Positions 30-51,701 of a stretch of DNA of 64,000 nt are shown here, piece by piece. A program made the position numbers and the translations under genes. How positions within the stretch are numbered: position 1 is the first letter of the stretch; every line of letters starts with the position of its first letter. Source of the DNA: an uncultured delta proteobacterium (GTDB taxonomy: Bacteria; Desulfobacterota; Zymogenia; Zymogenales; Zymogenaceae); contig CAWKCL010000006.1 in NCBI GenBank assembly GCA_963848155.1, positions 485,160 through 549,159 on the forward strand, given 5' to 3'. A model generated the notes under the pieces. It was not told where the DNA came from and made no database searches. It saw only the letters and a list, made by a program, of their open reading frames with translations.

Positions 30-2684
30 TCACTCCAGGGTTTGAAAATCAGGGTTATTGGCCGTATCATTGAAAACACAGGGCCGTCCCGTTCGAATGG
101 CCGTTCCGATCGGGCCCCTTCCGGTGGGCGTGTCATCCCAGGTTACCGTGACAGCGTCGAGGTACCCGTCCTCGTATCCCCAGTAGGCGGCGGGAGCGAC
201 CCGCATATGCCCTTCTTCCACGAGGCCGATCCAGACAAAATAGTACCCGCTCACCTCGCACAGGATTTCACACGCCCCGGCCAACAGCGTATCCTTATCG
301 TCGACCCTCACGATGAGCTTGTCTATAGTCCGTATGGACTCCAGCACGTGGTTGAGGTGCGCGATCCGTTCATCGGCGCGCTTGCGCTCCGTAATATCCC
401 TGCCGATACCCCGAACCTGCGCAATCCGTTTTCCCTCCCAGACTACCTGTTCGCGGACTTCGATTATCCGTATACTGCCGCTCTTATCGATGAAGGAGAT
501 TTCGTATGACCCGATATCTTCTCCCTTCTTCTGGGCCTTAAAAATCCCCTTGACTTTTTCCAGCGACTCCGGGGTCAGCAGCTCCATGTAGTTTTTCTGG
601 AGCAGCTCCTCGCGTGTATACCCCGAGACCTCCTCCAGGGCCTTATTGAGATAGATGATCTTCCCGGTACCGTCCGTAATATAAACAATATCGGCGATAG
701 TCTCGACCAGCTCCCGGTAGCGCTGTTCGGAATCCCGCAGCGCCTCCAGGGCCCGCTTCTTCTCCGTTATGTTGCGCCCGATCCCGTGAAACGATACGAT
801 TCGGTCGCCGTCCCAGACCAGCTGTTCCCTGGTTTCGATCGTCTTGATCGCCCCGGTCCTGTCGTAAAGCTCAAGCTCGAAAACCCCGGCGTCCTCCCCG
901 GCCCGCTGGCGTTTGAAGACGCTTGCGGCGGTTTCAATAGATTCGGGGGTAAGGAAGTCGGCGAAAGTTAGTCCCAGCAATTCTTTCCGGGAATACCCGA
1001 TAAACTGCTCGGCGGCTGCGTTGAGAAATACCAACTTACCGTCCTCGTTTGTGACGTAGATGATATCCGCGATATTCTCCAGCAGCTCGCGGTAACGCTG
1101 CTCGCTCTCCCTGATTGCCCGTTCGGTCTCCTTCCTCTTGCTGATGTCCGTCACGATAACCTGGACGGCCGGTTTGCCCCCGTAGGTAACGGGCGCCGCG
1201 ATAACGTCTACGGGAACGGGGGTACCGTCAAGCCTGACGTATACGTTTTCATTGGGATACAGCCCCTGTTCTCCGGCCATCATGCGCCTGAGACGGTCCA
1301 GGGACCGGTCAACATAGTCAGGATGAATGATCGTACTGACATCCCTGCCGGTTATCTCATCCGGGGATTGCGCCCCGACTATCTGCGCCCCGGCGGTATT
1401 CGTGAAGACGATCTTTCCCTCCGCCTGGACGGCGATGCCGACGGGGGCAAGCTCCAGGAGGTTGCGGTATCGCTCCTCGCTTTCCCGCAGCGCTTCCTGC
1501 GCGGTTTTCCTTTCCGTTATGTCGCGGCCGATCCCGTGTACCTCAACTATCCGGCGTCCTTCCCATACCAATTTCTCCCGGGTTTCCAGCGTCCTGATCT
1601 CACCGTCTTTGTTGTAGAAATCAAGCTCGAAGACCACCACATCTTCCCCGGCAAGCTGCCTTTTAAAAACAGCGGCAGCGGTCTCAAAGGACGACGGGAC
1701 AAGAAACTCAACAAAGCTGCGGCCAATAGATTCTTCCCGCGTATATCCGAAGAAACGCTCGGCCGCCCCGTTCAGAAACAGGACGTTGCCGCGGTCGTCC
1801 ACGACATAGACGATATCCCCGATGTTTTCTATCAACTCCCGGTATTTCCGTTCCGACTCCCTGATCGCCCGCTCGGCCTCCCTGCGCTCGGTGATATCCC
1901 GGCCGACGCCGAGAAATCCCTCGGGGCGTCCGTCCGCGTCACGGATGAGCGTCATGGTGATTTCCGACCAGAAGGTAGAGCCGTCCTTGCGGTAGAATTC
2001 AAGCTCCAGTGTCACGGATATCGGGAGCCCTGCGTCCGCCAGCCGTTCCGGGGTCAGATTTTCTGCGATCACTTCCGAAATGATTTTTAGGGATTCGGGG
2101 GTCATGTGCTTATCGAGGGGCATGTCAGAGAGATCTTGGAGGGTATATCCGCGGGTTGCCACTACCGACGGGCTGATATAGGTCGTGCGTAAATCCATGT
2201 CCATGATCCAGACGGTATCGCTCATATTCTCGGTGATGATCCGGTAGCGCTCCTGGTTTTCCCTGAGCGAGGCCTCGATCCGCTCCTTTTCCTGCCGGAC
2301 ACGCCTTACCTCCAGTGCGGCGGAGACGGCGGGTCCCAGCCGCCTGATGGAGTCTTTCAGGACATAGTCCGAAGCGCCCGCCTTAATACAGCTGACGGCG
2401 ACGTCCTCGTTTTGCGATCCGGTGAGGATAATCAGGGGGGTGGCGGGGGCGTTTTCGAGGGTGAGTTTCAGCGCCGTCATCCCGTTGAACACGGGCAGGC
2501 TGTAGTCCGAGACGATAATATCCGGGACAAAGGTCTCCAGCGCGTCCAGGAATTCCTCCTGCGTCTCTACAATTTTGAAGTCGCAGGGTTTTATCTCCCC
2601 GCCTATCTCCCGTTTAGCCAGTTCGGCGTCCGCGGCGACGTCTTCGACGATGAGGATTCGGATGGCCTCATCCATGGAGTTCAC
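30..2684 (-). CDS. Signal-transduction sensor: N-terminal receiver (REC), four PAS/PAC modules and a C-terminal GAF domain. The C-terminus runs off the window start.
   Basis: N-terminus has a CheY-like fold (IRILIVEDVAADAEL...DIIVSDYSLPVFNGM). There are four repeated PAS blocks, each followed by the DITERK motif, then GAF-like sequence to the window edge. No stop is seen before coordinate 30. Confidence 0.8.
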   Translation of the reverse strand: MNSMDEAIRILIVEDVAADAELAKREIGGEIKPCDFKIVETQEEFLDALETFVPDIIVSDYSLPVFNGMTALKLTLENAPATPLIILTGSQNEDVAVSCIKAGASDYVLKDSIRRLGPAVSAALEVRRVRQEKERIEASLRENQERYRIITENMSDTVWIMDMDLRTTYISPSVVATRGYTLQDLSDMPLDKHMTPESLKIISEVIAENLTPERLADAGLPISVTLELEFYRKDGSTFWSEITMTLIRDADGRPEGFLGVGRDITERREAERAIRESERKYRELIENIGDIVYVVDDRGNVLFLNGAAERFFGYTREESIGRSFVEFLVPSSFETAAAVFKRQLAGEDVVVFELDFYNKDGEIRTLETREKLVWEGRRIVEVHGIGRDITERKTAQEALRESEERYRNLLELAPVGIAVQAEGKIVFTNTAGAQIVGAQSPDEITGRDVSTIIHPDYVDRSLDRLRRMMAGEQGLYPNENVYVRLDGTPVPVDVIAAPVTYGGKPAVQVIVTDISKRKETERAIRESEQRYRELLENIADIIYVTNEDGKLVFLNAAAEQFIGYSRKELLGLTFADFLTPESIETAASVFKRQRAGEDAGVFELELYDRTGAIKTIETREQLVWDGDRIVSFHGIGRNITEKKRALEALRDSEQRYRELVETIADIVYITDGTGKIIYLNKALEEVSGYTREELLQKNYMELLTPESLEKVKGIFKAQKKGEDIGSYEISFIDKSGSIRIIEVREQVVWEGKRIAQVRGIGRDITERKRADERIAHLNHVLESIRTIDKLIVRVDDKDTLLAGACEILCEVSGYYFVWIGLVEEGHMRVAPAAYWGYEDGYLDAVTVTWDDTPTGRGPIGTAIRTGRPCVFNDTANNPDFQTLE

Positions 2685-2721: not shown

Positions 2722-3165
2722 TCACCGGGGGGGGTGATTGACCAGCAGCCAGTAGAGGCCGAGGTTGCTCATGGCGTTGAAGAACTGTTCGAAATCAACC
2801 GGCTTTACAACGTAGCTGTTAGCCCCAAGTGCGTATGACTCCTCGATATCAGGATCTTCCCGCGAGGAGGTCACAACGATCACCGGAATCTTTTTCGTTC
2901 GCGCATCAGATTTAATCTGGCTGAGCACCTCCAGGCCGCTGACCTTTGGCAGCTTCAGGTCCAAAAGGACGATCTTTGGGGGGGCCGCGTTTTCGCGCCG
3001 TGCGTATTGGCCGCGCGCAAACAGGATATCCAGCGCCTCGGCCCCGTCCTCGGCTACGTATATCCGGTTTGCCAGCCTGTTTTTCTTAAACGCCCGGACG
3101 ATAAGCTCCGCGTCCTGCGGGTTGTCCTCGACGAGCAGGATCTCGATCGCGTCGATGTCTTTCAC
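2722..3165 (-). CDS. Single-domain response regulator (CheY-like receiver)
   Basis: 147 aa; ILLVEDNPQDAEL...VLLDLKLPKVSGLEVLSQIK receiver motifs. Its start overlaps the histidine-kinase stop by 4 nt (ATGA), consistent with an operon. Confidence 0.85.
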   Translation of the reverse strand: MKDIDAIEILLVEDNPQDAELIVRAFKKNRLANRIYVAEDGAEALDILFARGQYARRENAAPPKIVLLDLKLPKVSGLEVLSQIKSDARTKKIPVIVVTSSREDPDIEESYALGANSYVVKPVDFEQFFNAMSNLGLYWLLVNHPPR

Positions 3166-6074
3166 GACTCACCCCCAAGTTTCGTCGGAAGGGAAAAGTA
3201 AAACACCGCGCCCCCATCTACCTTCCCTTCAGCCCATACACGTCCTCCGTGCCGGGCGATTATCCTGTGTACAATAGCGAGGCCCACGCCAGTGCCGGGG
3301 AATTCCTTTTCCCCGTGGAGTCGCTGGAAGACGCCGAAGAGCTTGTCGGAGTATCTATCGTCAAAACCTGCGCCGTTATCCCGGATCGAGTAAATTACCT
3401 GGGCATTCTGCTTACGGCCGGTAATTTCAATGACCGCGAGTTCTTCTTTCGAGGAGAATTTGACTGCGTTGGAGACGAGGTTTGTCCAGACGTGGCGGAG
3501 CAGGGAGGAATCTCCGTTGACCTCCGGAAGGTTGCCCACGGTAAACGAGATACGCGCCCGGTCGTCCTCCGTCGCCAATTCGAAAAATGCGGATTTGGCC
3601 AGAAGCTCCATGTTGATCGGGCCGATATGCAGCTCACTGCGCCCTACGCGGGAAAAGTCCAGCAGGTCATCGATAAGCTTTCCCATGCGCCGGGTATTAT
3701 CCCGTATAACGCCGGCCAGCCGCCTGCCTTCCTCGTCCAGACGATTATCGTATTCCTCCGCGAGCACCCTGGTAAAACCGTCGATGGCCCGCAGGGGGGC
3801 GCGCAGGTCGTGGGAGACCGAATAGCTGAAGGCCTCGAGCTCTTTATTGGCGGCCTGAAGCTGGGCCGTGCGGTCGATCACGCGCTGCTCCAGTTCCTCG
3901 TTGAGTTTCCTGATCTCGGCCTCGTCCCGCTTGCGCTTAGTAATATCCTTGTGCTGGATAACGGCGCTTATTATCCTCCCACCGGGGTCGCGCACGGGGA
4001 AGATCGTTGCATCGAGATATACCGACGCCGCGTCCTTGAGATCGAGGCCCGTGACCCGCGCCGTGTCGTAGGTGAGTTCGAACCTCGCCGTCTCCCCCTT
4101 TTCAAAAACGGCCTCGACCTTCGGCAGGTGTCCCTGCTCTCTAACGATATTATCGTTGAGCACGTTATATTTACCTATCACCTCTTCGGGGGTAATATGC
4201 AGCAGCTCACAGCAGGCCTTATTAATCCGTCTGAGCGTTCCGTTTTCGTCGGAAATCCACATGGGAACCGGGCTCTGGTCGATCATGCTGTCCAAAAATG
4301 TCGCCGATTTCCTGACTTCCTCCTCGGCGGTCCGCCAATCGGTCATGTCGCGGGCCGAGGAGAGCGCCCCGATGACGTTTCCATTTTCGTCTTTGAGGGC
4401 CTTACACCACCAGCCGAGCAGGCGTCGCTCGCCGTCCTTGCGCCGCTGCCAGCTTTCCACGTAAAATATATCCTCGTTGCCGTCAAACAGCGGCTTTACC
4501 GCGGCGTACGTATCCTGTTCGCCTTCAAAATACGACTCAGCCTCCTTACCGATCACATCTTCACCGAAGAAGTCGTAACCTGCCCGGTTAGCCCATGTAT
4601 ACACCTTTTCGGCGTCGACCTCCATGATGATATCCGGGACGGCGTCGAGGATTGCCTCCTGCCGCAGAGAAAGCACTCGCAGCGTTTCTTCGGCCCGCTT
4701 GCGCTCGGTGACGTCGATAAAGGAACCCTCGATACGTACCGGTTTCCCGTGTAGGTCTTTGACGATCCGGGCGTTTATCTCAACATAAATCTCTTCTCCG
4801 CTCTGTTTTTTCGCCGCGGTAAGGTAGTTCCGGATGACGCCCTGCAGTTTCAGTTGTCCAAGGTATGCTTTTCTATCCTCGGGATTCCGCCAGAAATCGG
4901 GAAGTCGCGCGTCAACCAGATTCGCGTCCGGGTCAAAACCGAGGATCCTGCTGAATTCAACATTATGATCGAGCAGTACGCCGTCAAGGGTCGCACTATA
5001 GAATCCTTCGCTCAGATTCATGATCATATTTCGGTACTTCAGTTCACTGGCCCGCAGCGCAGCTTCGGACCGCTTGCGCTCGGTAATGTCAAAGACGATG
5101 CCCAGATAGCGGATGATGTGCCCTTTTGTATCGCGCTCGGGCAACCCGCGGGACATCAACCAGCGTTCCGGCCCTTTGCGCGTATTCACACGCCATTCGG
5201 CGTTCAACTCGGTCCCTTGTTCAGTAGCACTCCTGACCGCGGCCTCGGCGGCCGAGCGGTCATTGGGGTGAATAGACCGCCGCCACAATTCGTATGAAGG
5301 CTCACCGCTGCCGGGCTCCAATCCGTAGAGCGTCCACAGCCCGTCGGACCAGGTGTTCTTGTTGGTTTTCAGGTCCCACTCCCACGCGCCGGCTTTAACC
5401 GCGTCATAGGCCCTCTGAAGGCGCTCTTTGCTCTCGTCGATTTGTCGGATTATCGGGGCCGATACCCGCACGAAAGCGATTGAACTTATAATCGCAAGGA
5501 CAAGCGCAACGATCCCCGCCGTCGTCCCCGCCTTTATGAAGGGGGCCTTGATCTCTGCAAGGTCGATCTTGACCACAACCCCAAGTCCGAGCGCAGGCAT
5601 CGGCTCGTGGGCGGCAAGCACCTCCTCCCCCCGGTAGTCGGTCCCGATCATCGTACCCGACTTCCCCGAGAGTGCCAGGCGCATGGGCTCCGCGAAGGCA
5701 GAATCGGGGCTCAGCGTGTTGGGGCCGGTTTCTTCGTACGATCTCTTAGTCAAGAGAAAGACTATGGTATCGTTCTCACGCCGGGCGACGACGATCTCAC
5801 CGGTTTTCGTATTGGTCAGGTAGTGTGTATGAAGCTCAATAGTATCGTGTAGCTTTGCAGTATCCAGCGTCCCGACGAGGGTATCGGCCGGATGTCCTTC
5901 TGCGAAGAAGACCTCCTCATAGTGGGAAACCATACTGCGGGCGATCTCTGAAAGGCGTTCCTTCTGTTCCTGGATCGAGGCCCGGTAGAGCATGATCAGC
6001 GAGACGGCGCTGACGGCCGCCGTCACGATGACCATAATAATAACGAGGAGTGCGATTCTACCTTTTCCCGTCAT
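3162..6074 (-). CDS. Membrane-bound PAS-domain sensor histidine kinase (HisKA plus HATPase_c)
   Basis: Two transmembrane segments flank a periplasmic region. There are three PAS/PAC repeats, an H-box (SHDLRAPLRAIDGF) and C-terminal ATPase G-boxes (GTGVGLAIV). Confidence 0.85.
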   Translation of the reverse strand: MTGKGRIALLVIIMVIVTAAVSAVSLIMLYRASIQEQKERLSEIARSMVSHYEEVFFAEGHPADTLVGTLDTAKLHDTIELHTHYLTNTKTGEIVVARRENDTIVFLLTKRSYEETGPNTLSPDSAFAEPMRLALSGKSGTMIGTDYRGEEVLAAHEPMPALGLGVVVKIDLAEIKAPFIKAGTTAGIVALVLAIISSIAFVRVSAPIIRQIDESKERLQRAYDAVKAGAWEWDLKTNKNTWSDGLWTLYGLEPGSGEPSYELWRRSIHPNDRSAAEAAVRSATEQGTELNAEWRVNTRKGPERWLMSRGLPERDTKGHIIRYLGIVFDITERKRSEAALRASELKYRNMIMNLSEGFYSATLDGVLLDHNVEFSRILGFDPDANLVDARLPDFWRNPEDRKAYLGQLKLQGVIRNYLTAAKKQSGEEIYVEINARIVKDLHGKPVRIEGSFIDVTERKRAEETLRVLSLRQEAILDAVPDIIMEVDAEKVYTWANRAGYDFFGEDVIGKEAESYFEGEQDTYAAVKPLFDGNEDIFYVESWQRRKDGERRLLGWWCKALKDENGNVIGALSSARDMTDWRTAEEEVRKSATFLDSMIDQSPVPMWISDENGTLRRINKACCELLHITPEEVIGKYNVLNDNIVREQGHLPKVEAVFEKGETARFELTYDTARVTGLDLKDAASVYLDATIFPVRDPGGRIISAVIQHKDITKRKRDEAEIRKLNEELEQRVIDRTAQLQAANKELEAFSYSVSHDLRAPLRAIDGFTRVLAEEYDNRLDEEGRRLAGVIRDNTRRMGKLIDDLLDFSRVGRSELHIGPINMELLAKSAFFELATEDDRARISFTVGNLPEVNGDSSLLRHVWTNLVSNAVKFSSKEELAVIEITGRKQNAQVIYSIRDNGAGFDDRYSDKLFGVFQRLHGEKEFPGTGVGLAIVHRIIARHGGRVWAEGKVDGGAVFYFSLPTKLGGES

Positions 6075-12526: not shown

Positions 12527-13468
12527 TTACGTGAAGGAATCGACGAGCCGATCGACGTCGAGAACCTCGCCCTTTTTGACGTCCCTGGCAAGGGAAACCG
12601 CGCCGTTTTCGCAAACCGCTACGCAGGCCCCGCATCCGTTACACTTCTCGTAGATAAAATCGATCGGCCTTTCAGCAGGGGAATCGGAAAAGACCAGTGC
12701 TCCATAGGGGCAGACCTTCGCGCAACCCCCACACGCGCGGCATTTCGCGTCGTCCCTTTTGGCCGCGTAGCCCGACGGGGCGACTATTCGTTTATCGTCA
12801 AGCCCGCCGATCTGCGAGATGATTCGGAACGCCTCGGCGCCCTTGCAGCAACAGCTGCAGCACGAGCAGAGGACGCCTCCCCGATAACCGGTGGCGTCCT
12901 TGAACCAGAGGTTGAACGAGACGCCCCGCCGGTACTGCGTCTCGATGAGCAGGGCCGCTTCCTGGGAAGTAACCCGCCTTCCGTGCATTCGGGGCATGTG
13001 GGTCGTCACGAAATCGACGCCGGGCTTCCCGAGAAACATGCAGGTATTGAGGGGCTCGCACGCAGGCAGCCCCCGGCCGATGTTTTCCAACCGGCAGGGA
13101 CAATCGACGAGGGCGATGTGATCCCTGTGGTTGAAGATGAGCCTGTTGGCGATGTCAAAGGGTATTATGCGCCTGCTCTCGTCATCGGGGACCAAAAGCT
13201 CCCGGTCCAGCATGACGAGTTTTCGCGCGTTCTCGACGGTAAGGACCTTTGCGTGGTAGTGGTCAACCAGGTAGGCGATCGCCCCGCGCGTGAGCGAAAG
13301 CGAGGGGAAGCGGCGCGTCAGGAACCGCAGGGCGGTAAGCGCCACGGCGACGTAGCGGTCGTACAGGGTATAGTATATATACCCGTGGGCCATGTTGGCG
13401 GCCCGGAGCATGCCCCGCGCCCCTTCGCCCTGCATCTTCCAGAAGTTCCTCGTCGACTCCTTTATCAT
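12527..13468 (-). CDS. Cysteine-rich Fe-S protein with two C-terminal 4Fe-4S ferredoxin motifs
   Basis: CRACGGCAKVCP and CNGCGACVAVCE motifs, plus an upstream CSCCSCCCKG cysteine cluster. Confidence 0.6.
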   Translation of the reverse strand: MIKESTRNFWKMQGEGARGMLRAANMAHGYIYYTLYDRYVAVALTALRFLTRRFPSLSLTRGAIAYLVDHYHAKVLTVENARKLVMLDRELLVPDDESRRIIPFDIANRLIFNHRDHIALVDCPCRLENIGRGLPACEPLNTCMFLGKPGVDFVTTHMPRMHGRRVTSQEAALLIETQYRRGVSFNLWFKDATGYRGGVLCSCCSCCCKGAEAFRIISQIGGLDDKRIVAPSGYAAKRDDAKCRACGGCAKVCPYGALVFSDSPAERPIDFIYEKCNGCGACVAVCENGAVSLARDVKKGEVLDVDRLVDSFT

Positions 13469-14984: not shown

Positions 14985-15989
14985 TCACGGGTTCGCCCCT
15001 TCCTCGAAATAGGCCCGGAATACCTCGCGGGCCACCGGCGCCGCGTCCTCCCCGCCCATTCCCCGGTAGAGGAAAACGACAACGGCGATCTCGGGCGCCT
15101 CGGCGGGGGCAAATCCGAGAAACCAGCCGTGCGTCTCCCACGGTACCCCCAGGAGCGTCCCCGTGCCGGTCTTGCCCATGACCTCATGGCCTTCCACCGC
15201 CGCCATGGTCGCGGTGCCGTAGCGGACCGCATCGCGCATTCCCTTGACGATGACGGGGGCGGCCCGCGATGCGTCTATCCTGCGCGCGAGCCGCGGGCTG
15301 AATGACGCGATCTCGCCGGCCGAACCGGTCACCGCCGGGACCCACACGCTGCCGCCGTTTACCAGGGCGGAGAGGTACGTGATCACCTGCAGGGGAGTGG
15401 CCGTAACGGCGTCGGTGTTTCCGATGAGGTAGTCGCGGCCGGGTCCGCCGGGCGGCGAAACCCTCCCCGCTGCCTCGCCGGGGAGGTTGACCCCGGTCTT
15501 CTTTCCAAAGCCGAGCTCCACGAGGCCGCGGTAGGTAGTATCGGCCGATACCGTGTCGCCCAGGGAAAGAAAATAGAGGTTGCAGGAATAGGCGATCCCG
15601 TGGACGAGGTCGAGATCCCCGTGGCCCGGCGGATACCAGCACGGGTATTCGATCCCCGAAAAGCGGGCGCTCCCCGTGCAGACGAACCTTTTCCCGGGGG
15701 AAAGGGTTCCCTCCTCTATCGCCTTCCAGGCGGTCACCAGCTTAACGAGGGACCCCGGGGGGAATGCCCACCCGGCCGCCGTTTCTTCCCCCGTCATTGC
15801 CCTGATCCTGCCCGTCCCCACGTCCATGACCACCACGGCCCCGGGTCGTCCGTCCATGGCGTCGATTGCGGCCTCCCTGAGGCGGGAGTCTTTTTCAAGC
15901 GTCGCCTCCGGTGACGGGGAGCAGGAGACCACCGCGATAAAAAGGGCGGCGGCCCCCCAGGGGCCGAGCCGCCGATGAAGAAATCTCAT
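14985..15989 (-). CDS. Penicillin-binding protein, transpeptidase domain only
   Basis: SxxK (SLVK), SxN (SCN) and KTG (KTGTG) motifs in canonical order. Signal peptide present. No glycosyltransferase domain. Confidence 0.75.
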   Translation of the reverse strand: MRFLHRRLGPWGAAALFIAVVSCSPSPEATLEKDSRLREAAIDAMDGRPGAVVVMDVGTGRIRAMTGEETAAGWAFPPGSLVKLVTAWKAIEEGTLSPGKRFVCTGSARFSGIEYPCWYPPGHGDLDLVHGIAYSCNLYFLSLGDTVSADTTYRGLVELGFGKKTGVNLPGEAAGRVSPPGGPGRDYLIGNTDAVTATPLQVITYLSALVNGGSVWVPAVTGSAGEIASFSPRLARRIDASRAAPVIVKGMRDAVRYGTATMAAVEGHEVMGKTGTGTLLGVPWETHGWFLGFAPAEAPEIAVVVFLYRGMGGEDAAPVAREVFRAYFEEGANP

Positions 15990-16003: not shown

Positions 16004-19000
16004 TCACTTCGTATCGGTAATGACGATGGTCGCGCTCTCCGTGCGTCCCGACCGGTCGGGGAAGTACATCAGGTATGCCTCGGCGGGCATCACGCCGTAG
16101 GTGCCGGGGTTTTGCGCCCTCAGGATGTATTTAAAGACCTTCGTCCCTTTACCGAAGTATTCCATCGAGAGGGCAATCCGCTCGTCGCGGTACTCCTTGC
16201 CCGCGTACCACCAGTAGGCGTCGCCCGTGTAGAGATCGTCGCCGGAGATAACGTAGTTCGCATCGTCCGTGACGGCCTCGCACCCGGCCGGGAAGTAATC
16301 TTCCAGCAGGAAGTATTTCACCGTCCTTGTCGTTGGTGACGGTCAGCTCCACGAGGATCTCGTCCCCGCTCGTGACGGGGCCGGCCAGCGGCACCTTGGC
16401 GTAAATCAGCTCGCCCTTCTTCGCCACCCGCTTGAGGAGGTAATATTTTCGTTTCACCTCGAATCCGTCGTTCTTGGGATCGATGCGGTCGGCCGCGGTG
16501 TAGTAGGTAAAGGCCGACGAATAGTAGAGGCTGCCCGGCCCGTCCTTCTTGATCTCGATCGTGTTCGTCCCGGTCTTCAGGTCGGCCTCCTTGATGGTGA
16601 TCGACCCCGCTTCCGAGATCATCGTGTCCTTGGTGATCTTGCTCTTCTTGATCTCCTTGCCGTTGAGGGTAACGGTCAGGGTGTAGTTCGGCGAGGTCTC
16701 TCCCGTCCGGGTAAGGTAATCGGTCAGTGCGTAGATGATCTTCCCGGTGACCTTGGTTGACCGCCAGTAGCTGCCCGTTCGGTTGACGATGAGCCAGCGG
16801 ATCGTCTTGGGGATCAAGCGGGTTGTCTATGTCGCGCTTGGCCATGACCCGGAGCATGTAGGCGGTCGTCTCGAGCGGATCGGCCTCCCAATCCCACCAG
16901 TAGAATTGCTCGCCGGTGTATCCCCAGTGGACCATTCCGTTGGACTCGATCTTTTCCTTCATCAGCTCATCGTAGAGGACCTTCGCCTTGCCCTCGACAC
17001 CCTTGTTCTCGTAGGCCAAAAGCAGCATCGCCTTGGAAATCGAGGTGAGCTTGGCCCGTTTCTCAAACATTTCGTCGAGCCAGGTCAGCTTGAGCTTATC
17101 GGTGTGCGAGAGGACGTACAGGGCATAGACCCTGACCGAGTCCTCCTTTATCGAGGGAAGCTGGGTGATGAGCGAGGCCGTCCCGCGCTTGATTACCCCC
17201 TCGTCGACCGTGATGGGGATACCCGCCTCCGGCAGCATCCGTTTTGCCTCCAGGAGGCCGTACAGGACGTAGGCCGTCATATAGGGGTCGGTCTCGTCGA
17301 ACTCATACCACCCCCAGCCGTTGTCGTCGTGCTGGCGTTTATACAGCACCATGAGCCCGCTGTTGATGTAGTCGGGGAGGTCCTTCTCGATGCTCTTTTC
17401 GCTCAGATCAAGCTTCTTCAAGTACCGAACCGACCATGATTGATGGCAAGAACCTTGCCATTACCTGCTCGTTTCAGCCATATGGGTAGCCGACCAGAAA
17501 TGGTATGGCGGCAAGCATCGTATTGGCGAGCGTGGGGCTCGTCGTCAGTACAAGCTCGGCGGCGTTCTTTATCGTGGAGGCCGGCTTATCCACCTTAACG
17601 GTGATCGTGCCCGATTCCTTGATGATCTCGCCCACCTCGCTCCTCGTTTCCCTGACGCCCATCGGCAGCACGGGTATCGTCAGCTCCATCCCGTCGGAGA
17701 CCTCGTTGGTCATCGCCTTGGCCGTGAGGGTCGCGTCCCCGACGAGATCGGCCCTGACGTGCCAGTCAATCCGTTTTTCGCCGTTTTTCGGGACGATTGC
17801 GTCGACCGGTTTGCCGGATATGAGCGTGAGCCCCTTGGCCTCGAAGGTGAAGCGCACGTTCTTGTCGGTGGAGAGATAATTATGGGCGATCGTGGAGATC
17901 ACCAGGTCGTCTCCCTGGCGGAAGAACCGGGGCGACTCTATCCTGACCAGCAGGTCCTTCCTGCTGATGACGGTGTAGGTCACCTGGCCCATCAATCGCC
18001 GCCGGTCACCCCCCGCACCGTCGCCCGCCAGCGCGTCAGGTTATCCGGAAAATTCACGCTGATCGTGGCCGTGCCGTTCCTGTCGGTGGTGATGGTGGGT
18101 GACCAGTACATCGTATCCTTGAAATCCTTTCGGATCACCGGCTCCACGAGGCTGTCTCCCTTGAAGTCGGCAAGCTTCGTCTCACTTTTCGGGGAGCGCC
18201 GCCAAGAGCCCCTTGCGGTGGGAATACCCGTAGAAGCGGAAGTAGAGCGACGAGGAGGTATCCACCGAATGGTAGCGGAGGCTATAGAAATACTTCTGTA
18301 TCTCGTCGACCAGCTCCGGCGAGATGGCGTAGATCGCGTCGTCCACGATGCCCAGCGAGACCTCCGCGGTCACGGGCTTGCCCTTGTCGTCGGTCGTCTT
18401 GATGGTGAAGGTCCCCTTTTCCTGGGGCTCGTATACCGCCTTGTTGGAGGTAACCTCGATGGTGACGAATTTTTCGGTCGGCGGGATGATGATGTTCTTA
18501 TTCTCGGTGTAGAGCTCATCGTTAAAGATCGCCGAGACCGAGATGTAGATGTTCGGCGCGTACTGCTCCTTTATGGGCAGATCGATCATCGTCGAGCCGC
18601 CGGCGATCTTTACGACCCTGCTGTCGTAGATCGCCTCCCCCTCGGTGGTGACCAGGAGATAGGTATCGGTCACCGGGGCGGCTATCAGGATATGGGCCGT
18701 ATCGCCGACGGCATAGGTCTCCTTGTCGGGGACGATCGAAACACCGCCCCCCGATTCCCCCCCGTAGGCGTATCCTCGGTGATCGAGTAGGAGCTGTCCC
18801 TGGCGGGGTGCTGTTTCCCGCCTTATCGAAGACCGTGGCCACAAAGTTGATATCACCCACGCCCCTCACGGGATATTCGATAACGGCGTCGCCCGCGGCG
18901 TTGGTGGTCCCGGTAAGGGTCATCGAGGAGGGGGCGGCATTGGTCCTTCCAGCCGGTCACCGTAGCGATTAGCGTCACCGGCACGCCGGCGATCCCGTTG

Positions 19001-20661
19001 TTGTCGAAGTCGGAGACGTTTACGGTTACGCGCGCCGTGTCGCCGGGGGCGTATATCCACCGGTCCGGGCCGCACCGTAAGCGAATAAGAGGAGCGCACG
19101 ACCTTGACCACCGAGCTTGTCGTAACCACCCGGCGGGAGAGGTCGGTCACCGAGGCCTCGATCGTAAACGTATAGTCGTTATCGGGCGATTCGAGGTATA
19201 GTGACGGTATCCACCGTCAGCTTAAGCTTTCCCTGGTCATCCAGGATCGCGTGCCGCTGTCCACCATTACCTTCTCATGGGCATAGTAATAGTCGGAATC
19301 CATGAAGTACCAGCCCCAGTCATATCCCCACCACCAGGGGCGCTCATATACCGACCGGTAAATCGGTATAGTCGACCTTCGCCTCCGAGACGGGGCTGCC
19401 GAAATAGTAACCCGCGTCGATATCGGCGCGGATCGTCTCGCCCCGGATATAGACGTCCTTATCCGTCTTGACCTTGACCTCGTACTCCGGCTTCTTGTAT
19501 TCCTCGACCTTAAAGCTGGCTGTAGTAATTCTGGCCGTTCAGGCTCACGACGATCTGATACTCCCCGAGCGAGGGCTCGGCGCCGAGAACGAAGCTGCCG
19601 GCAAGGCTCCCATATTCGGTCAGGGGGAACTCGCTCCTCAAGACCTCGTTGCCCTTGGCGTCGTTGACGATGACCAGGTAGTCGTCGCCCCTGCCGGGCA
19701 CCTTGAGCCCCGAATCGGTCGATTCCCTCAGGATCGAGCGGAAAAAGACCGTGTCTCCGGGACGGTAGACGGGCCGGTCGGTGTAGGTATATACCTTGTC
19801 GTTGGCCTCGTCCCACCAGTAGGCGTAGGGGTCGGCGAGCGTGAAGTTCTTGCCGTCCTCGGCGAAGACGTAGACCGTGTCGGAATCGCCCGTCTTCACC
19901 TTGGAGTAGTACGTCCCTTCCGAATCGGTCTTGCCCTTGAACAGGAGTTTTTTCTCCTGGTCGTAGACCGAAACCTTGACGCCCCGCATCGGCTTTCCGG
20001 TCACCCGGTCGGCCACGTAGATGAGGCTGTCGGAAGACGAGCTCTTGACGATAAACGACATCGGGGTGACCACCACCATCGTGTAGGCCACCTCGTCCTG
20101 GTAGACCGCCTCGACCAGGTAACAGCCGACATCGGGGATATTCAGGTTAACCGTGTGATATTGCCACTGGCCGGAGCGTGAAATAACGAGGTTTTCCTGC
20201 CAGCGGTTCAGGAAGTTGAAGCGCTTCAGGATCGGGAAGAGCTCGTAGCTTTCCGGGGCCGGGGCTTCCGGCTCCGAGGCGTGGGGCAGGCCCAGGGCGG
20301 ACACCATGTCGTTGCGGATGTTATCGGTGAGCTTACCCCGGTAATCGTCCCTCAACAGCCGCCCGGCCTTGCGCTTGACCGCGCCTACCATCTCCGAGGG
20401 GGAGGATACGCCGCGCTTGGTGACAACCTCCGGGGAGTGCACGTCCTCAAGCCCCAGGAAGTAGGACTTCGGGTCATCGACCCGGTAGAGCCGGATATCC
20501 AGCGTCGGGATATCCATCGCCGATACCGTGACGGAGACCGGCTCGCCCGGCGCGAAGATCTTATCGGTAGAAAGCTCAAACGAGCCGGCAAAGGCCAGGG
20601 CCGGCAGCGCGCACAGTAATGCGAGAGAAAGGATAAGGGACTTTTTCATGGTTTCCCTCAA
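16004..20661 (-). CDS. Secreted alpha-2-macroglobulin family protein (MG domains, thioester region, C-terminal receptor-binding-like domain). It is split by several single-base indels and has an in-frame TGA at the thioester cysteine position.
   Basis: ORF fragments 19510..20661, 18182..18856, 17474..17995, 16318..17421 and 16004..16321 read colinearly as a roughly 1550-aa alpha-2-macroglobulin. It has a signal peptide. ...LVGYPYG-[TGA][14 protein letters not shown] aligns with eukaryotic PYG-C-GEQNMVLFAPNIYV. Confidence 0.8.
17443..17461 (-). promoter_or_regulatory. Candidate bacterial SECIS-like hairpin downstream of the in-frame TGA at 17474..17476
   Basis: mRNA reads UGA–AACGAGCAGGUA–AUGGCAAG-GUU-CUUGCCAU. 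Twelve-nt spacer, perfect 8-bp stem, 3-nt loop beginning with G. The apical loop lies about 23 nt after the UGA, which is bSECIS-like geometry. Confidence 0.45.
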
Positions 20662-20680
20662 CGTAGTATGCCGTTGCTAA

Positions 20681-21737
20681 TCAATCCAGTATCTTGAGCC
20701 GGTAATATCCAAGAAAATGATCGTTTTCCTTCACCGGCCGCCACCGCTCGTCCGGGTGCTCCTTGAGCGTGGCCAGCCTCACCTTGCGCACCTGCCCCCG
20801 GTCGTTTGTCCTCGGGCCGGTATGGTAGACCAGCCAGTCCTCGTTCTCGTCGTCGTCGGCCTCTCTCCCCCACTCGCCCAGGTAGATCATCGTATGGGAC
20901 GGCATCCGCGGGTTATCCGGGTTGAAGAAGAACAGGAGATCTCCCGGAAGCACGTCACGCTCGGTGCGTCCCAGAAAGACGACATTATACTGGAGCAGCG
21001 CCTCGGCCGTGCCCGCCGCAGAAAAGTTGAGGCCGATATCGTCGGGCGTAAAGGCGCCCGGCGCCGTGCGGAAGACCGCCGTTCCCAGGAGCGGCACGCC
21101 GGGATACGCGTACCTCTTCACGTCCGGGTTGGCCGGCGAGACCAGCGTGGCGTATGACGCGAAAAACGCGTCGTCGTGCGGCTTGAGGGCCTCGATATAG
21201 GCAAACCGCACCAGGCCCGCGCAATCCCGGTTGAGCTCGTCCCAGCGCCGGTTTTCCTCGAACACCTGCGATTCTGCCACCGCGCAAAACCAGCGCCTGA
21301 AGTTGAGCCGGTCGGTATCCCCGAAGAGCTCGGTCGACGTCCGGGAAACCGTCCTTATCCCGATCCCGGTAGTCTCCGACGACGTCGATCGTCGCCCGTC
21401 CGGGGTCAAGCCCCGGGGCCTCGGCCGTAACGTAAAGGGTGCCGGTCTCGAACGTCGAAATAAGTCGCGCCGCCGCCGCCCCGTTGTGAAGCAGGATCGG
21501 CCCGCCCTCCGTCATGGTAACCGCGGGACCGGAAAGGGTAACCGTTACCGGCCCGTCGTACCCGCGGGCGGGGTTTCCCGCCTCCGTTACCGCGTTGATG
21601 GCGAGCTCCACGGTATCTTCCCTGTTCGCCGAAAGCCTGTCCTTTGAAGGAGCGACGGTTATATCGGTCGCCCGGCCGCACGAGACGGCCGTTACGGCCG
21701 ATACGATCAACAGGAGCGGCCCGGCCCAGCTATTCAT
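20681..21737 (-). CDS. DUF1175-family (YfaT-like) secreted protein. Frameshifted near 21300–21360 in this assembly.
   Basis: Lipoprotein-type N-terminus ([20 protein letters not shown]). The C-terminal 200 aa (...[17 protein letters not shown]...HTMIYLGEW...) is in a second frame. Confidence 0.55.
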
Positions 21738-23496
21738 CGATGTCTTTTGCCGTGAGCGTAACGGTGCCTTCGATAGCGTCGCCCGAAAAGTTAATGCCCC
21801 CGGAACATGAGACAAACGCATGCCGCGTCAGTTCCAGAAGCGGCAGCAGCCGCTTTTCCGAATCCTGATAGAGAAAATAGGTATAGTTTGCCGAGAGATT
21901 GACCAGGTAATCCTCCAGGAGCGAGACCGCGTTGTTCCCGTCAACATAGCCGTAGAGGTCGTAATTGTCGGCGGGGATCTTCTTTTGGGCCTCGATAAAG
22001 GCCGCCGATTTAGTGAGGAAGTCCCGGTCAAAGAGGCTGCCCGCCTCCTTCATCGACGAGAGTGCGGCGTTGTCGATGAGCCGCTGCGACCGCCGAGAAA
22101 TCCCAGAAGAGAAAAAGCTTCCCGCCCCAGAACCCGAATCCCGGGTTTGCCTTGACGGAAACGTCATATTCGGAGCCGTTCCAATTGATGCTCTTTTCAC
22201 GGAAACCGCCCATGTACGACAGCGTGGCGTTGTCCAGGGTGATGACCTGGGGGCCGGCATCAAAAAACGAATAGGCGAAGAACTTGGAGAGGTTTTCCGC
22301 GAGCGCGGCCTCGCCGCCCGGTTTCACGCCCACGGAAGCTATCACCTTCAGGTGCGGCTTTTGGGCCTCCCAGCCGAGCCCGACGAGCGCCGCCGTCGCC
22401 CCCCTGCCGAGGTTGTTGATGATGCCTCCCTCGAGGTCGAATCCCCCCTTCTCTTTCCACGTCTTGAGCACGGAGATATAGGCGATCCGCTCAGCCACGT
22501 CCCCGAACCAGCTCTTTGAAAAGTGTGTGTAGACGATACCCGGGTCAAAGGCCCGAAAGGCGATCAGGCCCGCCGTTTCCCCCGGGATCTGCCCGAGGTC
22601 GATCGGCGGCGTATCGGCAAGCGTCCCGAGCGCCATAAGGTCGGTCAGCGTCCTCCGCCGTACCGTACGGGGCCAGCATCGAGGCGTCGATCCCCGTCTC
22701 GGTAAACGTTAAAGCCGCCGCTACCGCGTCCGTACCTTTCAACAGCCGCGCCATCCGCGCCCGGAGCCCCTTCTTTGTCGGGATCGGGATTCATGACGGA
22801 GGTCGAGTAGTAGAGGACGTGGTACTGGCCGGGCAAACGTGAGAACAGACCCGTGAACCGGGGGTTATTCGTGATCGCGGCGGTACCGCTACCCGATACC
22901 ATCTCCCACTGGCTCTTGAACAGCTCTGCCGAATCGGAAAAGACCGTGTATTGTTTTGTCGATTTGTAATATATATGCTTGCCGCCGGCCGTGACCACCC
23001 AGACCGAATAGGTCCCCCAGTCCTCCTTGGCGACGCCGCCCGAAAAGATCGAGGCGGCGCCGATGACCAGGCGCTTGAAAAATCCCGTCTCGATTATCCC
23101 CGCCGAGGCCGTACCGGAAGGCAGTCTCGTGGTAAAAAAGACCGCCCGCTTGCCGACCATCCATAACACCCGGCGCGGCGTTGGACGGATACCCGTCGAT
23201 TTTTCAAGATCGCCCAGTTTCGTGAGGAGCGGCGCGGAGAGATCACTCTTGAACGGACCGTCGAAAACGGAAAGGCCGCGCACCTCGTCATAGTAGTCGC
23301 TCCTGAGAAACGGCGAGAGCCCCTGTTTCAGGTCGCGCAGATAGATAAGGGACTCGACGTTTTCGGGGACGAGCCCGAGAAGCTCGTCGGGGGCTTCCGC
23401 CCGGGCGTCCCCGAGGTTCATTACGAGCGTAATGCCCATCGCGACCGCGACCGCTACGCCCAGGGCGATTGCCGAAATCCGGATTCTTTGTCGCAT
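21730..23496 (-). CDS. DUF2138-family (YfaA-like) secreted protein, split into three fragments by indels
   Basis: Signal peptide (MRQRIRISAIALGVAVAVAMG). Fragments 22645..23496, 22028..22636 and 21730..22263 are colinear. Confidence 0.5.
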
Positions 23497-23524
23497 GACG
23501 TGCTCCCTATTGTCCCCGGCCTTT

Positions 23525-25011: not shown

Positions 25012-25281
25012 CTATGGCTTTTTAAAGACGTGATCCCCCGGTCGGACCTTGTCGGCGATCTTTATCCCCACCAGCGCCCCTGACTTGACGTCCGTCACCT
25101 CGGCGTTATCGATCTGCATCGAGGCCACCACCTCGGTAAAATCGGTCGTGGCTCCCTTGAAATGGAGCTCATCGCCGACCTTGATGGGGCCGGTTACCTT
25201 TATCGCCGCAACGGACGGCTTGGCAAAAAACTTGATGACCTCTCCAACCATTACCTCTTCGGACATCACACTCCTCCTCAC
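25012..25281 (-). CDS. Small beta-barrel protein resembling EF-Tu/SelB domain II
   Basis: 89 aa. (GEVIKFFAKPSVAAIKVTGPIKVGDELHF...ALVGIKIADKVRPGDHV) resembles translation-factor domain-II barrels. It sits immediately downstream of selA. Confidence 0.4.
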   Translation of the reverse strand: MRRSVMSEEVMVGEVIKFFAKPSVAAIKVTGPIKVGDELHFKGATTDFTEVVASMQIDNAEVTDVKSGALVGIKIADKVRPGDHVFKKP

Positions 25282-26741
25282 ACGCTGTCTTTTTCGGGTC
25301 TGTTGCTATGCCGGGATCCCGTCTCTCCCCGCAGCGCGGCCGCCGTCCCCCGGATCAGGTCCGGTATCTGGCGGTCGGTGATTGTGCGGGGGTCCAGGAT
25401 CAGTCGTTCATGGGTAATCCGGGCCACGATAGGGACCGGTTGGCGGCGCAGGCGCTCCTCGAGCTTGACGGGGCTTTCGGCCAGCGGGATGATCGTGATC
25501 ACCCGGCCGGGCAGCTCGGAAGTCGGGAAGGCCCCGCCGCCGACCCCGGAAACGTCGTCCGCGGTGGTGACGTGGTGGTTCGGGTGGGGCTCCCGGTTGA
25601 GCTGCCGGACGATTCTCAGGGCGCGCCGCTTTGTCTCGTCGTAGGACATCGTGATCATCCTGACGACGGGGATCTTCTGCCGGGCCTCGTTCGGGTCGCG
25701 GTAGAGCATGAGGGTCGATTCGACGGCGGCCAGCGTCATCTTATCGACGCGCATGGCCCGGTACAGGGGGTTTTTCGCGACCCGCTCGACGTAATCGGCC
25801 GCCCCGATGACGAAGCCGGCCTGCCCCCCGCCCAGCAGCTTATCCCCGGAAAAGGTGATAATATCCACGCCCGACGAGACCACCTCCGGGACGGTCGGCT
25901 CGTGGGGGAGCCCCCAGGGGGTCAGGTCGATAATCGAGCCGCTGCCGAGGTCCTCCATGACCGGCACGTCGTACCGCCTTCCGAGGGCGACAAGCTCGGC
26001 TGCGGCGACCTCCTCGGTAAACCCGACGATCCGGTAGTTCGATGTATGGACCTTCAACAGCAGCCCCGTCTGGGAGCCGATGGCGCGTTCGTAGTCGGAA
26101 AGCCTCGTCCGGTTGGTCGCCCCCACCTCGCGCAGGCGGGCGCCGCTCTTTTCCATCACGTCGGGAATCCTGAACGCGCCGCCGATCTCCACAAGCTCGC
26201 CCCGGGAGACGATGACCTCCCGCCCCTCGGCCAGCGTATTGAGCGCCAAAAGGACCGCCGCGGCGTTGTTGTTGACGACCACGGACGCCGGGGCGCCGGT
26301 GATTTCGGTTATCAGCGCGGAGAGGTGGTCCCGGCGCGACCCCCGCCGTCCTTCGTCGAGGTCAAATTCGAGGTTGGAATAGCCCGAGGAGATTGCCGCG
26401 ACATGATCGAGCGCCTCGTTAGCCAGCGGCGCCCGTCCGAGGTTGGTATGCAGGATGATCCCGGTGGCGTTGATAACCGGCACGAGCCGCGGCGTGATCG
26501 ACATCAGCAGCCACTCCTCGATCAGGGAAAGGAGGGCCGGCTCGGCCATCACGTCGGACGCGGGGTGTTCCTTGAGCTGCCCGCGGGCGTCGGACACCGC
26601 CTCCCGGACGGCCTGTTTGACCACCATCGCGGGAAAGCGCTCCGAAAGCTCCCTGACGTGCGGATGAGCGAGCAATTTATCCACCGCGGGAAGTTTGGAG
26701 AGAGGTGATTGGGGGGCCGGTTTTTCGGTCTTTTTCGGCAT
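25278..26741 (-). CDS. selA: L-seryl-tRNA(Sec) selenium transferase (selenocysteine synthase)
   Basis: 487 aa with SelA signatures (VINATGIILHTNLGRAPL) and the PLP-lysine motif (ITFSGDKLLGGGQAGFVIG). Confidence 0.9.
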   Translation of the reverse strand: MPKKTEKPAPQSPLSKLPAVDKLLAHPHVRELSERFPAMVVKQAVREAVSDARGQLKEHPASDVMAEPALLSLIEEWLLMSITPRLVPVINATGIILHTNLGRAPLANEALDHVAAISSGYSNLEFDLDEGRRGSRRDHLSALITEITGAPASVVVNNNAAAVLLALNTLAEGREVIVSRGELVEIGGAFRIPDVMEKSGARLREVGATNRTRLSDYERAIGSQTGLLLKVHTSNYRIVGFTEEVAAAELVALGRRYDVPVMEDLGSGSIIDLTPWGLPHEPTVPEVVSSGVDIITFSGDKLLGGGQAGFVIGAADYVERVAKNPLYRAMRVDKMTLAAVESTLMLYRDPNEARQKIPVVRMITMSYDETKRRALRIVRQLNREPHPNHHVTTADDVSGVGGGAFPTSELPGRVITIIPLAESPVKLEERLRRQPVPIVARITHERLILDPRTITDRQIPDLIRGTAAALRGETGSRHSNRPEKDSV

Positions 26742-49850: not shown

Positions 49851-51092
49851 TCATTCCATCGATGCGATCATCGACTTCGCAAAGCCCGAGCAGGAGACCT
49901 CCACGGCACCGTCCATCTGGCGCGCCAGGTCGTAGGTGACGGTCTTTTTTGCCACCGTCGCCTCAAGCGAGTCGTAGATCATCTCGGCCGCCTCTTTCCA
50001 CCCCATGTGCTCCAGCATCAGCGAGGCCGAGAGTATCAGCGAGCCGGGGTTGACCTTGTCCTGGCCGGCGTACTTGGGCGCCGTGCCGTGGGTCGCCTCG
50101 AACAGCGCCGCGTGGTCCCCGATGTTGGCCCCCGGCGCCATCCCCAGCCCGCCGATCTGCGCGGCAAGCGCGTCCGAGAGGTAGTCCCCGTTGAGGTTGG
50201 GCGTGGCGATGACCGAATACTCCTCGGGCCTGAGCAGCACCTGCTGGAACATCGCATCGGCGATACGGTCCTTGATGACGACCCGGCCCTTTGTGCCCTT
50301 GGCGTCCGGGCCGTTAAGCTCGGATTCGGTAACGGTCAGGTCCGAAAACTCCTGACGGGCCACCTCGTAGCCCCAGTCACGGAACGCCCCCTCGGTGAAC
50401 TTCATGATGTTGCCCTTGTGCACGAGCGTCACCGAGTCCCGCCCGTTGTCCACGGCGTACCTGACGGCGCGGCGCACCAGCCTTTTGGTCCCGGTCTCGC
50501 TCATCGGCTTGATGCCGATGCCCGAATCGGGGGCAATCGCGACGCCGAACTGGTCCTTGAGGATCGCGATCAGCCGCCCGGCCTCGTCGCTGTCCCGTTT
50601 CCACTCGATGCCCGCGTAGACGTCCTCCATGTTTTCGCGAAAGATCACCATGTCCACCCGCTCGGGGTGCTTGACGGGCGAGGGGACGCCCGGGATGTAG
50701 CGCACCGGCCGCACGCAGGCGTAGAGGTCCAGGAGCTGCCTCAGCGCCACGTTGATGCTCCGCATGCCCCCGCCCACCGGCGTGGTCAGCGGCCCCTTGA
50801 TCGCCACCACGTATTTCCTGATGGCGTCAACGGTCTCGTCCGGCAGCCAGGAGCCGGTCTTCTTGTAGGCGGCCTCTCCCGCGGCGACCTCAAACCAGCG
50901 GATCTCGCGCCTCCCGCCGTAGGCCCGCTTCACGGCCTCGGCCACCACCATCTCGGTGGCGTGCCAGATATCGGGGCCGGTGCCGTCGCCCCGGATAAAG
51001 GGGATGATGGGGTCGTCGGGGACGGAGAGCCCCCGGTCGGGGTTGACGGTTATGGTGGAGCCGTCGGGGGGGGTAAAATAAATGGGTGTCAT
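49851..51092 (-). CDS. icd: Isocitrate dehydrogenase (NADP-dependent, dimeric type)
   Basis: ([14 protein letters not shown]...[22 protein letters not shown]...[10 protein letters not shown]) motifs. It is fused in the ORF track to the upstream gene through frameshift read-through. Confidence 0.85.
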
Positions 51093-51187
51093 GCGCCATG
51101 AGTAATCGTATCCTTCCTGTAGTAAAACGAATAGCCGACGGTCGGCCGGGGTTCCGTGCGCCGACGTCACGCCCGCGCCGCTATAGG

Positions 51188-51695
51188 CTATACCGCGATC
51201 CTGCCGTGCCGCTTGATGTGGTCGACCAGCCCCCCGTCTTCGAGTATCTTCTGCATGACGTCCGGCAGGGCCGGGAAGGTAAGCTCGATGCCCTGCGTCA
51301 CGTTCCTGACGACGCCCTGCGCGAGGTCCACCTCGAGCCGGTCGCCCTCTTTGTATACGGGTCGTGTCCACGATGATCGCCGGCAGCCCCACGTTGATCG
51401 CGTTTCTGAAGAATATCCGCGCAAACGACTGCGCCAGCACCGCGCCGACCCCTGCCATCCTGATGATACGCGGGGCGTGCTCGCGCGAGGAGCCCAGGCC
51501 GAAGTTCTTGCCCGCGACCACGAAATCGCCCGGGGAGAGCTTCCCCGCGAAATCGGTCCGCGCGTCTTCCAGGACGTGCTTGGCAAGCTCCGGGAGGTTT
51601 GACCGCAGGTGAAAATACCTCCCGGGGGCGATGTGGTCGGTGGAGATATCGTCCCCGAAGATAAACGCCTTTCCTGTTAGAATCGCCTCTGTCAT
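51188..51695 (-). CDS. LeuD-like / aconitase swivel-domain small subunit, with an indel near 51360
   Basis: N-terminus ([19 protein letters not shown]...[17 protein letters not shown]) and C-terminus ([22 protein letters not shown]) lie in two frames. Confidence 0.65.
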
Positions 51696-51701
51696 GGTGC
51701 C

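Follow-up and report, generated by a model that had tools for sequence, protein, structure and literature searches.

A candidate selenocysteine codon at the thioester position of a bacterial α2-macroglobulin

The stretch of DNA analysed here (the window; 64,000 nucleotides (nt) of contig CAWKCL010000006.1, assembly GCA_963848155.1, from an uncultured delta proteobacterium) carries on its minus strand an α2-macroglobulin (A2M) gene, in which an in-frame TGA stands where the reactive cysteine of the thioester is expected. Comparison of related sequences suggests that this UGA very probably encodes selenocysteine (Sec, U) in a functional A2M-type protease trap that would be exported and carry UxEQ in place of CxEQ. 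A selenocysteine α2-macroglobulin had been put forward as a candidate in a preliminary description of the window, and this proposal is now supported by conservation of the TGA, by a frozen block of sequence that follows it, by the loss of that block in a relative with cysteine at the site, by a fit to the bacterial selenocysteine insertion sequence (bSECIS) and by a nearby selA gene. Observations that would tell against selenocysteine had been named beforehand, among them close orthologues that all carry cysteine and a hairpin that is not conserved, and every check of this kind that could be run favoured the selenocysteine reading.

The A2M gene spans 16004..20649 (minus strand) and was delimited from fragments of its open reading frame (ORF), from Pfam MG2/bMG3 matches to the N-terminal fragment and from the domain calls of its orthologues. 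The TGA lies at 17476..17474 within GYPYG-UGA-NEQVM, occupying the thioester-cysteine place of the CxEQ motif, as first noticed from the window. Assignment of this triplet (17474..17476, minus strand) as the proposed Sec codon of a U-N-E-Q motif draws on the reading of the window, 12 orthologues, the alignment with human A2M, and a TGT codon in one relative, L017 (related loci are numbered with L, database proteins with P). When the translation, with X at the TGA, was searched against sequences in the PDB, the position aligned to the thioester cysteine of human A2M (PYG-C-GEQNM, in the matched stretch …llqMPYGCGEQNMVLFAPNIYV; E = 3e-11), and further matches were found to E. coli YfhM, Salmonella A2M, TEP1 and CD109.

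The intact orthologues, from L001 and L003, are proteins of about 1552 to 1554 amino acids and begin with a signal peptide, in which no clear lipobox is visible by eye. Across the two fragments on either side of the TGA, Pfam recognises MG2, MG3/bMG3, A2M_BRD (the bait region), A2M, TED_complement and bMG10. Since the cysteine itself is absent from the CXEQ thioester motif in the TED, whereas x-E-Q is retained, we class the protein among variants of the type I A2Ms and not among their ordinary members; judged from its sequence, it would behave as a type I A2M only if selenocysteine is inserted. TGA is an ordinary terminator in these genomes, ending 14 of the 27 Pfam-supported genes of the window and 9/29 called genes in L001 and L003, and therefore the codon has not been reassigned genome-wide.

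The same codon is TGA in L001 to L014, L016 and L018 to L021. These loci provide 12 distinct sequences with pairwise nucleotide identities of 69–98%; the independent assemblies behind them, taken from NCBI, ENA and JGI and built from short reads as well as long reads, number at least 17. Genomes with the TGA form include GCA_016929395.1 (contig JAFGIX010000054.1) and those to which contigs CAVTLK010000004.1, CAWBYW010000016.1 and CAWELC010000009.1 belong. Close orthologues, for which an alignment at this position had been proposed, are therefore not all of the cysteine type. In a protein search with the stitched region, every close relative proved to be a fragment that either ends or starts at the TGA: the N-terminal ones (P0014 to P0016, 97–99% identity) finish …FLVGYPYG, and the C-terminal ones (71–100% identity) begin at the next methionine after it. 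The TGA is the sole stop in 1500 nt of frame in 17 of the 21 sequences examined, and L017 has no stop at all. The fraction of invariant sites at the three codon positions is 0.49/0.65/0.09 upstream of the UGA and 0.50/0.70/0.10 downstream. Since codon-position constraint is equal on the two sides, both halves are under purifying selection in one frame.

Immediately at the TGA begins a 35-nt block (TGAAACGAGCAGGTAATGGCAAGGTTCTTGCCATC; 17442..17476, minus strand) that is identical in all 12 Sec-type orthologues of the clade. It extends from the T of the TGA to the C that follows the hairpin described below, and is the longest invariant run in the alignment, the runner-up reaching 7 nt over 1320 scored columns. 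Nine degenerate codons after the TGA (for N, E, Q, V, A, R, F, L and P) are each represented by one codon in 12/12 sequences, whereas elsewhere such single-codon usage is seen at only 17 of 183 degenerate codons whose amino acid is invariant. Codons flanking the block vary freely; serine at +11, for example, uses four codons. The block is an extreme outlier of the gene, beyond chance.

RNA folding and the bSECIS model identify a hairpin, AUGGCAAG-GUU-CUUGCCAU, within the codons of this block for M-A-R-F-L-P (17443..17461, minus strand). Its 5′ arm AUGGCAAG occupies 17461..17454, the GUU loop 17453..17451 and the 3′ arm CUUGCCAU 17450..17443. The SECIS-like hairpin reported in the preliminary description is borne out: the stem is a perfect 8 base pairs (bp) and starts 12 nt after the UGA, with 20 nt between the UGA and the loop. 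By itself the hairpin folds with -9.1 kcal/mol, and the 41-nt stretch around it gives -10.3 kcal/mol, with z = -2.3 relative to dinucleotide-shuffled sequences. The consensus bSECIS has an upper stem of 4–16 bp and an apical loop of 3–9 nt with G within its first two positions, usually followed by G or U, placed 16–37 nt from the UGA, and a minimum free energy (MFE) of -7.5 kcal/mol or lower (PMC13188914, Fig. 2A). It can be seen that the hairpin falls within each of these four ranges (8 bp; a 3-nt GUU loop with G first and U second; 20 nt; -9.1 kcal/mol), and hairpin energies for the bSECIS fit span -9.1 to -12.8 kcal/mol. Its conservation, which had been singled out for checking, extends to the nucleotide at synonymous sites. 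When the hairpin core was searched for elsewhere in the window only the site itself was found, and no Rfam family matched anywhere in the window at the gathering threshold.

Relatives with cysteine at the site serve as a natural control, at the DNA level through L017 alone (Ca. Zymogenaceae bacterium Zod_maxbin.0311), which has TGT at the site and is 82–85% identical in nucleotides to its nearest Sec-type relatives. Its copy of the block contains nine substitutions, including GCA (Ala) to TCG (Ser), AGG to CGC, TTG to CTG and CCA to CCG, and it no longer folds into the hairpin (-2.4 kcal/mol, z = +0.86), while an intact selA is retained upstream. The hairpin is thus lost exactly in the cysteine-type orthologue whose DNA can be read, which answers the earlier suggestion that orthologues of this type be inspected for it. 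Two further cysteine-type members, P0001 and P0003, are known as proteins and read GYPYG-C-NEQV[LM]SRFLPS. In a neighbour-joining tree the three cysteine forms sit at three different places inside the Sec clade, and, because the block is identical in every Sec form, the simplest history would be one Sec ancestor followed by at least three reversions to cysteine.

Codon +6 (17456..17458, minus strand) differs between the two types. It encodes alanine (GCA) in the Sec forms and serine in the three cysteine forms of the clade, and serine (MSRFLP or MSSFLP) is also found in the three more distant cysteine-type homologues that were read. Since GCA completes the stem, the choice of amino acid at this position seems to follow from the demands of the RNA structure.

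We also addressed how far the TGA extends beyond this clade. An exhaustive HMMER search with an N-terminal fragment was evaluated over the best 150 representative clusters, of which 129 have CxEQ. Five of these 150 end exactly at …[YF]P[YF]G (39–70% identity): P0031, which belongs to the present clade, and P0032, P0034, P0135 and P0136. In the DNA of the four further lineages (39–53% identity) TGA occupies the thioester codon (L023:9337; L024:9244, equivalent in L025 and L026; L027:9271; L028:1754); the same frame continues with [VM]-E-Q-x-M-x-x-F-[LV]-P, and a separately called TED/bMG10 ORF comes next. The glutamate and glutamine after the UGA are kept at only 39–53% identity, with a synonymous change between CAG and CAA. 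Hairpins can be folded in each lineage: AUGGGCA-AGUUUC-UGCCCAU in L023 (-9.9 kcal/mol); GGCAGG-GUU-CCUGCC in the three assemblies L024, L025 and L026 (-8.8 kcal/mol), with one compensatory A-U to G-C change relative to the window; a longer one in L028 with a CUUCC loop that lies outside the model (-11.5 kcal/mol); and a stem of only 4 bp in L027 (-4.2 kcal/mol). G-U-U at nt 24–26 from the UGA is common to all five Sec lineages, and cysteine-type L017 has C at nt 24.

A selA gene, encoding L-seryl-tRNA(Sec) selenium transferase, is present in the window at 25278..26741 (minus strand; Pfam SelA 3.1e-153 together with Se-cys_synth_N), close to the A2M gene as the preliminary description had pointed out. 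It is intact, lies on the same strand 7.8 kb upstream of the UGA, and is syntenic in relatives: L002/L018, L003/4, L016, L017, L019 and L020 have it upstream of their A2M gene at a distance of 5 to 8 kb, and L001 does not. An 89-amino-acid ORF (25012..25281, minus strand) overlaps the selA stop codon by 4 nt, suggesting translational coupling. This small ORF after selA is conserved in L003 (86 amino acids), and in L002 its product has a weak Pfam match to GTP_EFTU_D2, as would an EF-Tu domain-2-like protein.

A number of results weigh against selenocysteine at this site. Neither selB nor selD was found in Pfam scans of about 50 ORFs of the window, ARAGORN found no tRNA-Sec in the window or in 12 related loci, and, taking the window together with some 250 kb of related loci, none of the three was seen. 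The window copy of the A2M gene is itself frameshifted and split over many ORFs. The hairpin is invariant within the clade and so shows no covariation there, and across the five lineages covariation in the fixed register of the window was not significant, 61 of 500 shuffles reaching the score; the hairpins of L023 and L028 use registers other than that of the window. L027 and L028 have no hairpin that fits the bSECIS model, and are weaker candidates. Synonymous resampling of the encoded peptide gave a SECIS-like stem of at least 8 bp with a probability of about 0.05, the length of the stem reached P = 0.05 to 0.10 in three lineages and was not significant in L027 and L028, and the MFE did not differ significantly from that of synonymous-codon resamplings (P = 0.09–0.66). 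Finally, a selenoester might be too labile to persist. Since some 5% of synonymous resamplings give such a stem and the MFE test is not significant, the mere existence of the hairpin is weak evidence, and the case for function rests on the frozen synonymous sites and on their decay in the cysteine form.

The alternative that survives best, and which we nevertheless regard as very unlikely, is that translation does terminate at the TGA and that the gene encodes two separate products, an N-terminal MG/bait protein of 1063 amino acids that ends …GYPYG and a TED/MG10 protein that starts from an AUG five codons later. Such a pair would have no thioester and would act as a type-II-like, non-covalent trap. 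All gene callers do annotate two ORFs, an AUG 12 nt after the TGA is conserved, and thioester-less bacterial A2Ms of the MagD kind are known to trap proteases non-covalently (PMC5764988). However, x-E-Q-[VIT] between the TGA and the AUG is kept in frame at 39–53% identity, with the synonymous glutamine change noted above, and five lineages have the break at precisely the catalytic codon. The methionine after the TGA is a conserved residue of the family (human GCGEQNM) rather than a new start, and the cysteine-type relatives nested in the clade are continuous. Moreover, it is the TGA, and no ribosome-binding site, that marks the start of the frozen block, and the block has decayed where TGT replaces the TGA.

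A second alternative accepts that the UGA is read through, but as tryptophan, cysteine or arginine by a near-cognate tRNA, the hairpin being a generic stimulator of read-through and not a SECIS. The failure to observe selB and tRNA-Sec in the window and related loci is in its favour, and hairpins downstream of stop codons can indeed promote read-through. Against this, the features matched are those specific to a SECIS (a G-U that opens the apical loop, and a spacing within 16–37 nt), G24-U25-U26 is shared by all five Sec-type lineages with C24 in cysteine-type L017, and selA is conserved beside the operon. Interchange of selenocysteine and cysteine at a nucleophilic cysteine is the classical signature of a selenoprotein, and a single mutation to TGT or TGC, which some relatives do use, would supply cysteine if that were required. 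Insertion of a standard residue is accordingly highly improbable.

The 35-nt block could also serve in RNA or DNA in some other way, as a regulatory hairpin, an sRNA site or a site bound by a protein, with a tolerated stop present by coincidence; this is less probable still, to the point of being extremely unlikely. A function cannot be read from invariance by itself, and the lack of significant cross-lineage covariation is compatible with such a role. The block, however, begins exactly at the T of the TGA and vanishes together with it in L017, and, whatever the block does, some form of recoding has to be invoked for a stop that interrupts a long ORF at its catalytic codon while purifying selection acts on either side of it.

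Errors in the window bear on the reading of the gene. The nearest genome record is a long-read metagenome-assembled genome, 'uncultured delta proteobacterium MFD04716.bin.1.84' (L016; 91–94% nucleotide identity), and the relatives are labelled Candidatus Zymogenaceae or Zymogenus. A comparison over 3 kb with L006, a contig from an Illumina metagenome with intact frames and 95% identity, shows eight single-base indels in the A2M gene of the window. The preliminary description had attributed errors of the window to homopolymer indels; they are indeed single-base indels, but only some of them lie in homopolymers. One is an extra T at about 17420 (minus strand; GTACT-GAAG in L006, GTACTTGAAG in the window), identified from the reading of L016 and L006. 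It creates a false '…VLEEA*' end, so that this tail, part of the earlier reading, is an artefact, and intact orthologues read on differently. A class I aminoacyl-tRNA synthetase gene of the isoleucyl/valyl type (60740..63538) is likewise broken into three ORFs and therefore the indels point to assembly noise and not to selective decay of the A2M gene. Single-base indels in 16004..23500 and 60740..63538 also break the MagC-like gene described below and a 581-amino-acid gene upstream, while the long ORFs 30..2684 and 3162..6074 are intact, the errors being unevenly distributed over the window.

At least 8 single-base indels in 3 kb and many broken frames might suggest a sequencing error at the TGA or, for the window copy, a decaying pseudogene. 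This reading is already effectively refuted: 17 or more independent assemblies have the identical TGA, among them Illumina contigs in which the frames are otherwise intact; exactly one stop per 1500 nt is seen in 17 of 21 sequences and none in cysteine-type L017; and the synthetase is split in the same way. The earlier argument that a chance error from TGT or TGC to TGA is unlikely holds, since 12 distinct orthologues from short-read and long-read assemblies share the codon, and the pseudogene reading was rejected given the frameshifted synthetase and the existence of intact orthologues.

If the UGA is recoded as selenocysteine, SelB·GTP·Sec-tRNA(Sec) would bind the hairpin that starts 12 nt downstream, and translation would yield one polypeptide of about 1550 residues in place of two fragments. 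After export and folding, the selenol may attack the side chain of the glutamine three residues on, forming a buried γ-glutamyl selenoester. Cleavage of the bait region by a protease would then expose the selenoester, which would acylate a nucleophile of the protease, as in thioester A2Ms. Selenols are more acidic than thiols and are better leaving groups, and selenoesters are the faster acyl donors. With the better leaving group the transfer should be faster and covalent capture more rapid; the cost would be lability, which may be tolerable in the anoxic habitats of these lineages. The retention of the xEQ motif tips the balance modestly towards the selenoester actually forming. Selenium supply may also act as a switch between production of the complete trap and production of the N-terminal fragment alone.

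Full-text searches of the literature found nothing relevant on selenocysteine or a selenoester in macroglobulins or other thioester proteins. A table of 119 prokaryotic selenoprotein families and subfamilies in a 2026 review (PMC13188914) contains no A2M or thioester protein, and neither word is mentioned. No model of NCBIfam release 20 matches the full-length orthologue, and one member at NCBI is named only 'hypothetical protein'. Within the literature and databases searched, this is apparently an undescribed selenoprotein family, and the Sec form would be a new version of the thioester-protein mechanism. On the sequence evidence, we hold it slightly the better bet that a genetically encoded selenoester, an intramolecular Sec-Gln γ-glutamyl bond, replaces the A2M thioester as a more reactive covalent warhead. 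It would then be the first selenocysteine used in acyl transfer, arisen or kept in at least five lineages with several reversions to cysteine.

To our knowledge, selenocysteine serves redox or metal-centre chemistry in almost all known selenoproteins, and Sec/Cys pairs are even used to predict redox-active cysteines. Selenocysteine at the thioester position of an A2M would, if true, break this pattern, and a protein selenoester would be a new post-translational bond in biochemistry. We know of selenoester ligation so far only as a tool of synthetic chemistry, and the bond would be of relevance to protein engineering in that context. Sec-type and cysteine-type orthologues that are 82–85% identical in nucleotides offer a way to compare selenium directly with sulphur in acyl transfer, for instance in the speed of aminolysis or the quality of the leaving group. 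Genes of this kind are systematically mis-annotated as two ORFs, and more of them could be retrieved by looking for N-terminal fragments with …PYG at their end.

The genes on either side of the A2M gene combine features of two known bacterial systems. Directly downstream lies a gene for a 334-amino-acid protein with a transpeptidase domain (14985..15989, minus strand; Pfam Transpeptidase 9.6e-44), found at the same position in L001 to L005. As no glycosyltransferase domain is seen in it, the protein differs from a canonical PBP1c; it is the probable counterpart of the penicillin-binding protein partner of type I bacterial A2Ms. Directly upstream is a MagC-like gene (20681..21821, minus strand), frameshifted in the window, where Pfam Glyco_hydro2_C5 is found on the fragment 20985..21821; its orthologues in L003 and L002 carry PF06672 MagC. 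The type I pairing of A2M with PBP1c (a2m-pbpC) goes with a thioester, whereas the type II mag operon is without one, and MagD lacks a CXEQ motif and traps proteases non-covalently (PMC5764988). The layout of the Sec-A2M operon is a hybrid of type I and type II features, and we place the protein functionally with type I because x-E-Q is retained and the position interchanges with cysteine.

Like the type I A2Ms, exemplified by E. coli ECAM/YfhM and Salmonella Sa-A2M, the protein has a multi-MG architecture with a bait region, a TED and a C-terminal MG10, x-E-Q in the same place, an N-terminal export signal and a peptidoglycan transpeptidase gene immediately downstream, which recalls the a2m-pbpC pairing. 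It differs from them in its UGA-encoded (candidate Sec) thioester position, in a partner that is transpeptidase-only and not a bifunctional PBP1c, in the MagC-like gene upstream and in a lipobox that is not obvious, and its PDB matches are significant but distant (E 3e-11 to 3e-05). With type II MagD of the Pseudomonas aeruginosa magABCDEF operon it shares a MagC-family gene (PF06672) directly preceding the macroglobulin gene, and a database annotation of a protein without cysteine at the thioester position. In MagD, however, CXEQ is lost altogether, whereas here xEQ is kept, the cysteine position is apparently recoded and nested relatives have CNEQ; and of a six-gene operon only the MagC-like neighbour is recognised here.

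As in bacterial selenoproteins such as FdhA, SelD, GrdA/B and peroxiredoxin, an in-frame UGA is followed by a stem-loop of bSECIS consensus, cysteine orthologues and selA are present, and database entries are truncated at the UGA. Known selenoproteins overwhelmingly have selenocysteine at redox or metal-ligand sites, whereas here it would replace an acyl-carrying cysteine that holds an internal ester bond. The eukaryotic thioester proteins (human A2M, complement C3/C4, insect TEP1 and CD109) have a homologous TED and a GCxEQ-type motif (E 3e-11 to 2e-05) but all use cysteine, and no Sec form of them was found in the literature searched.

In L003 a small ORF continues the frame of an Fer4 gene, and the window has a homologue at 12527..13468; as a possible second selenoprotein this was rejected, since it ends in TAG/TAA. 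Elsewhere in the window, a 614-amino-acid ORF (49851..51695, minus strand) joins Aconitase_C (LeuD-like) and Iso_dh (LeuB-like) domains and overlaps the ORF 51298..52569. This could reflect a true fusion or an indel that has removed a stop.

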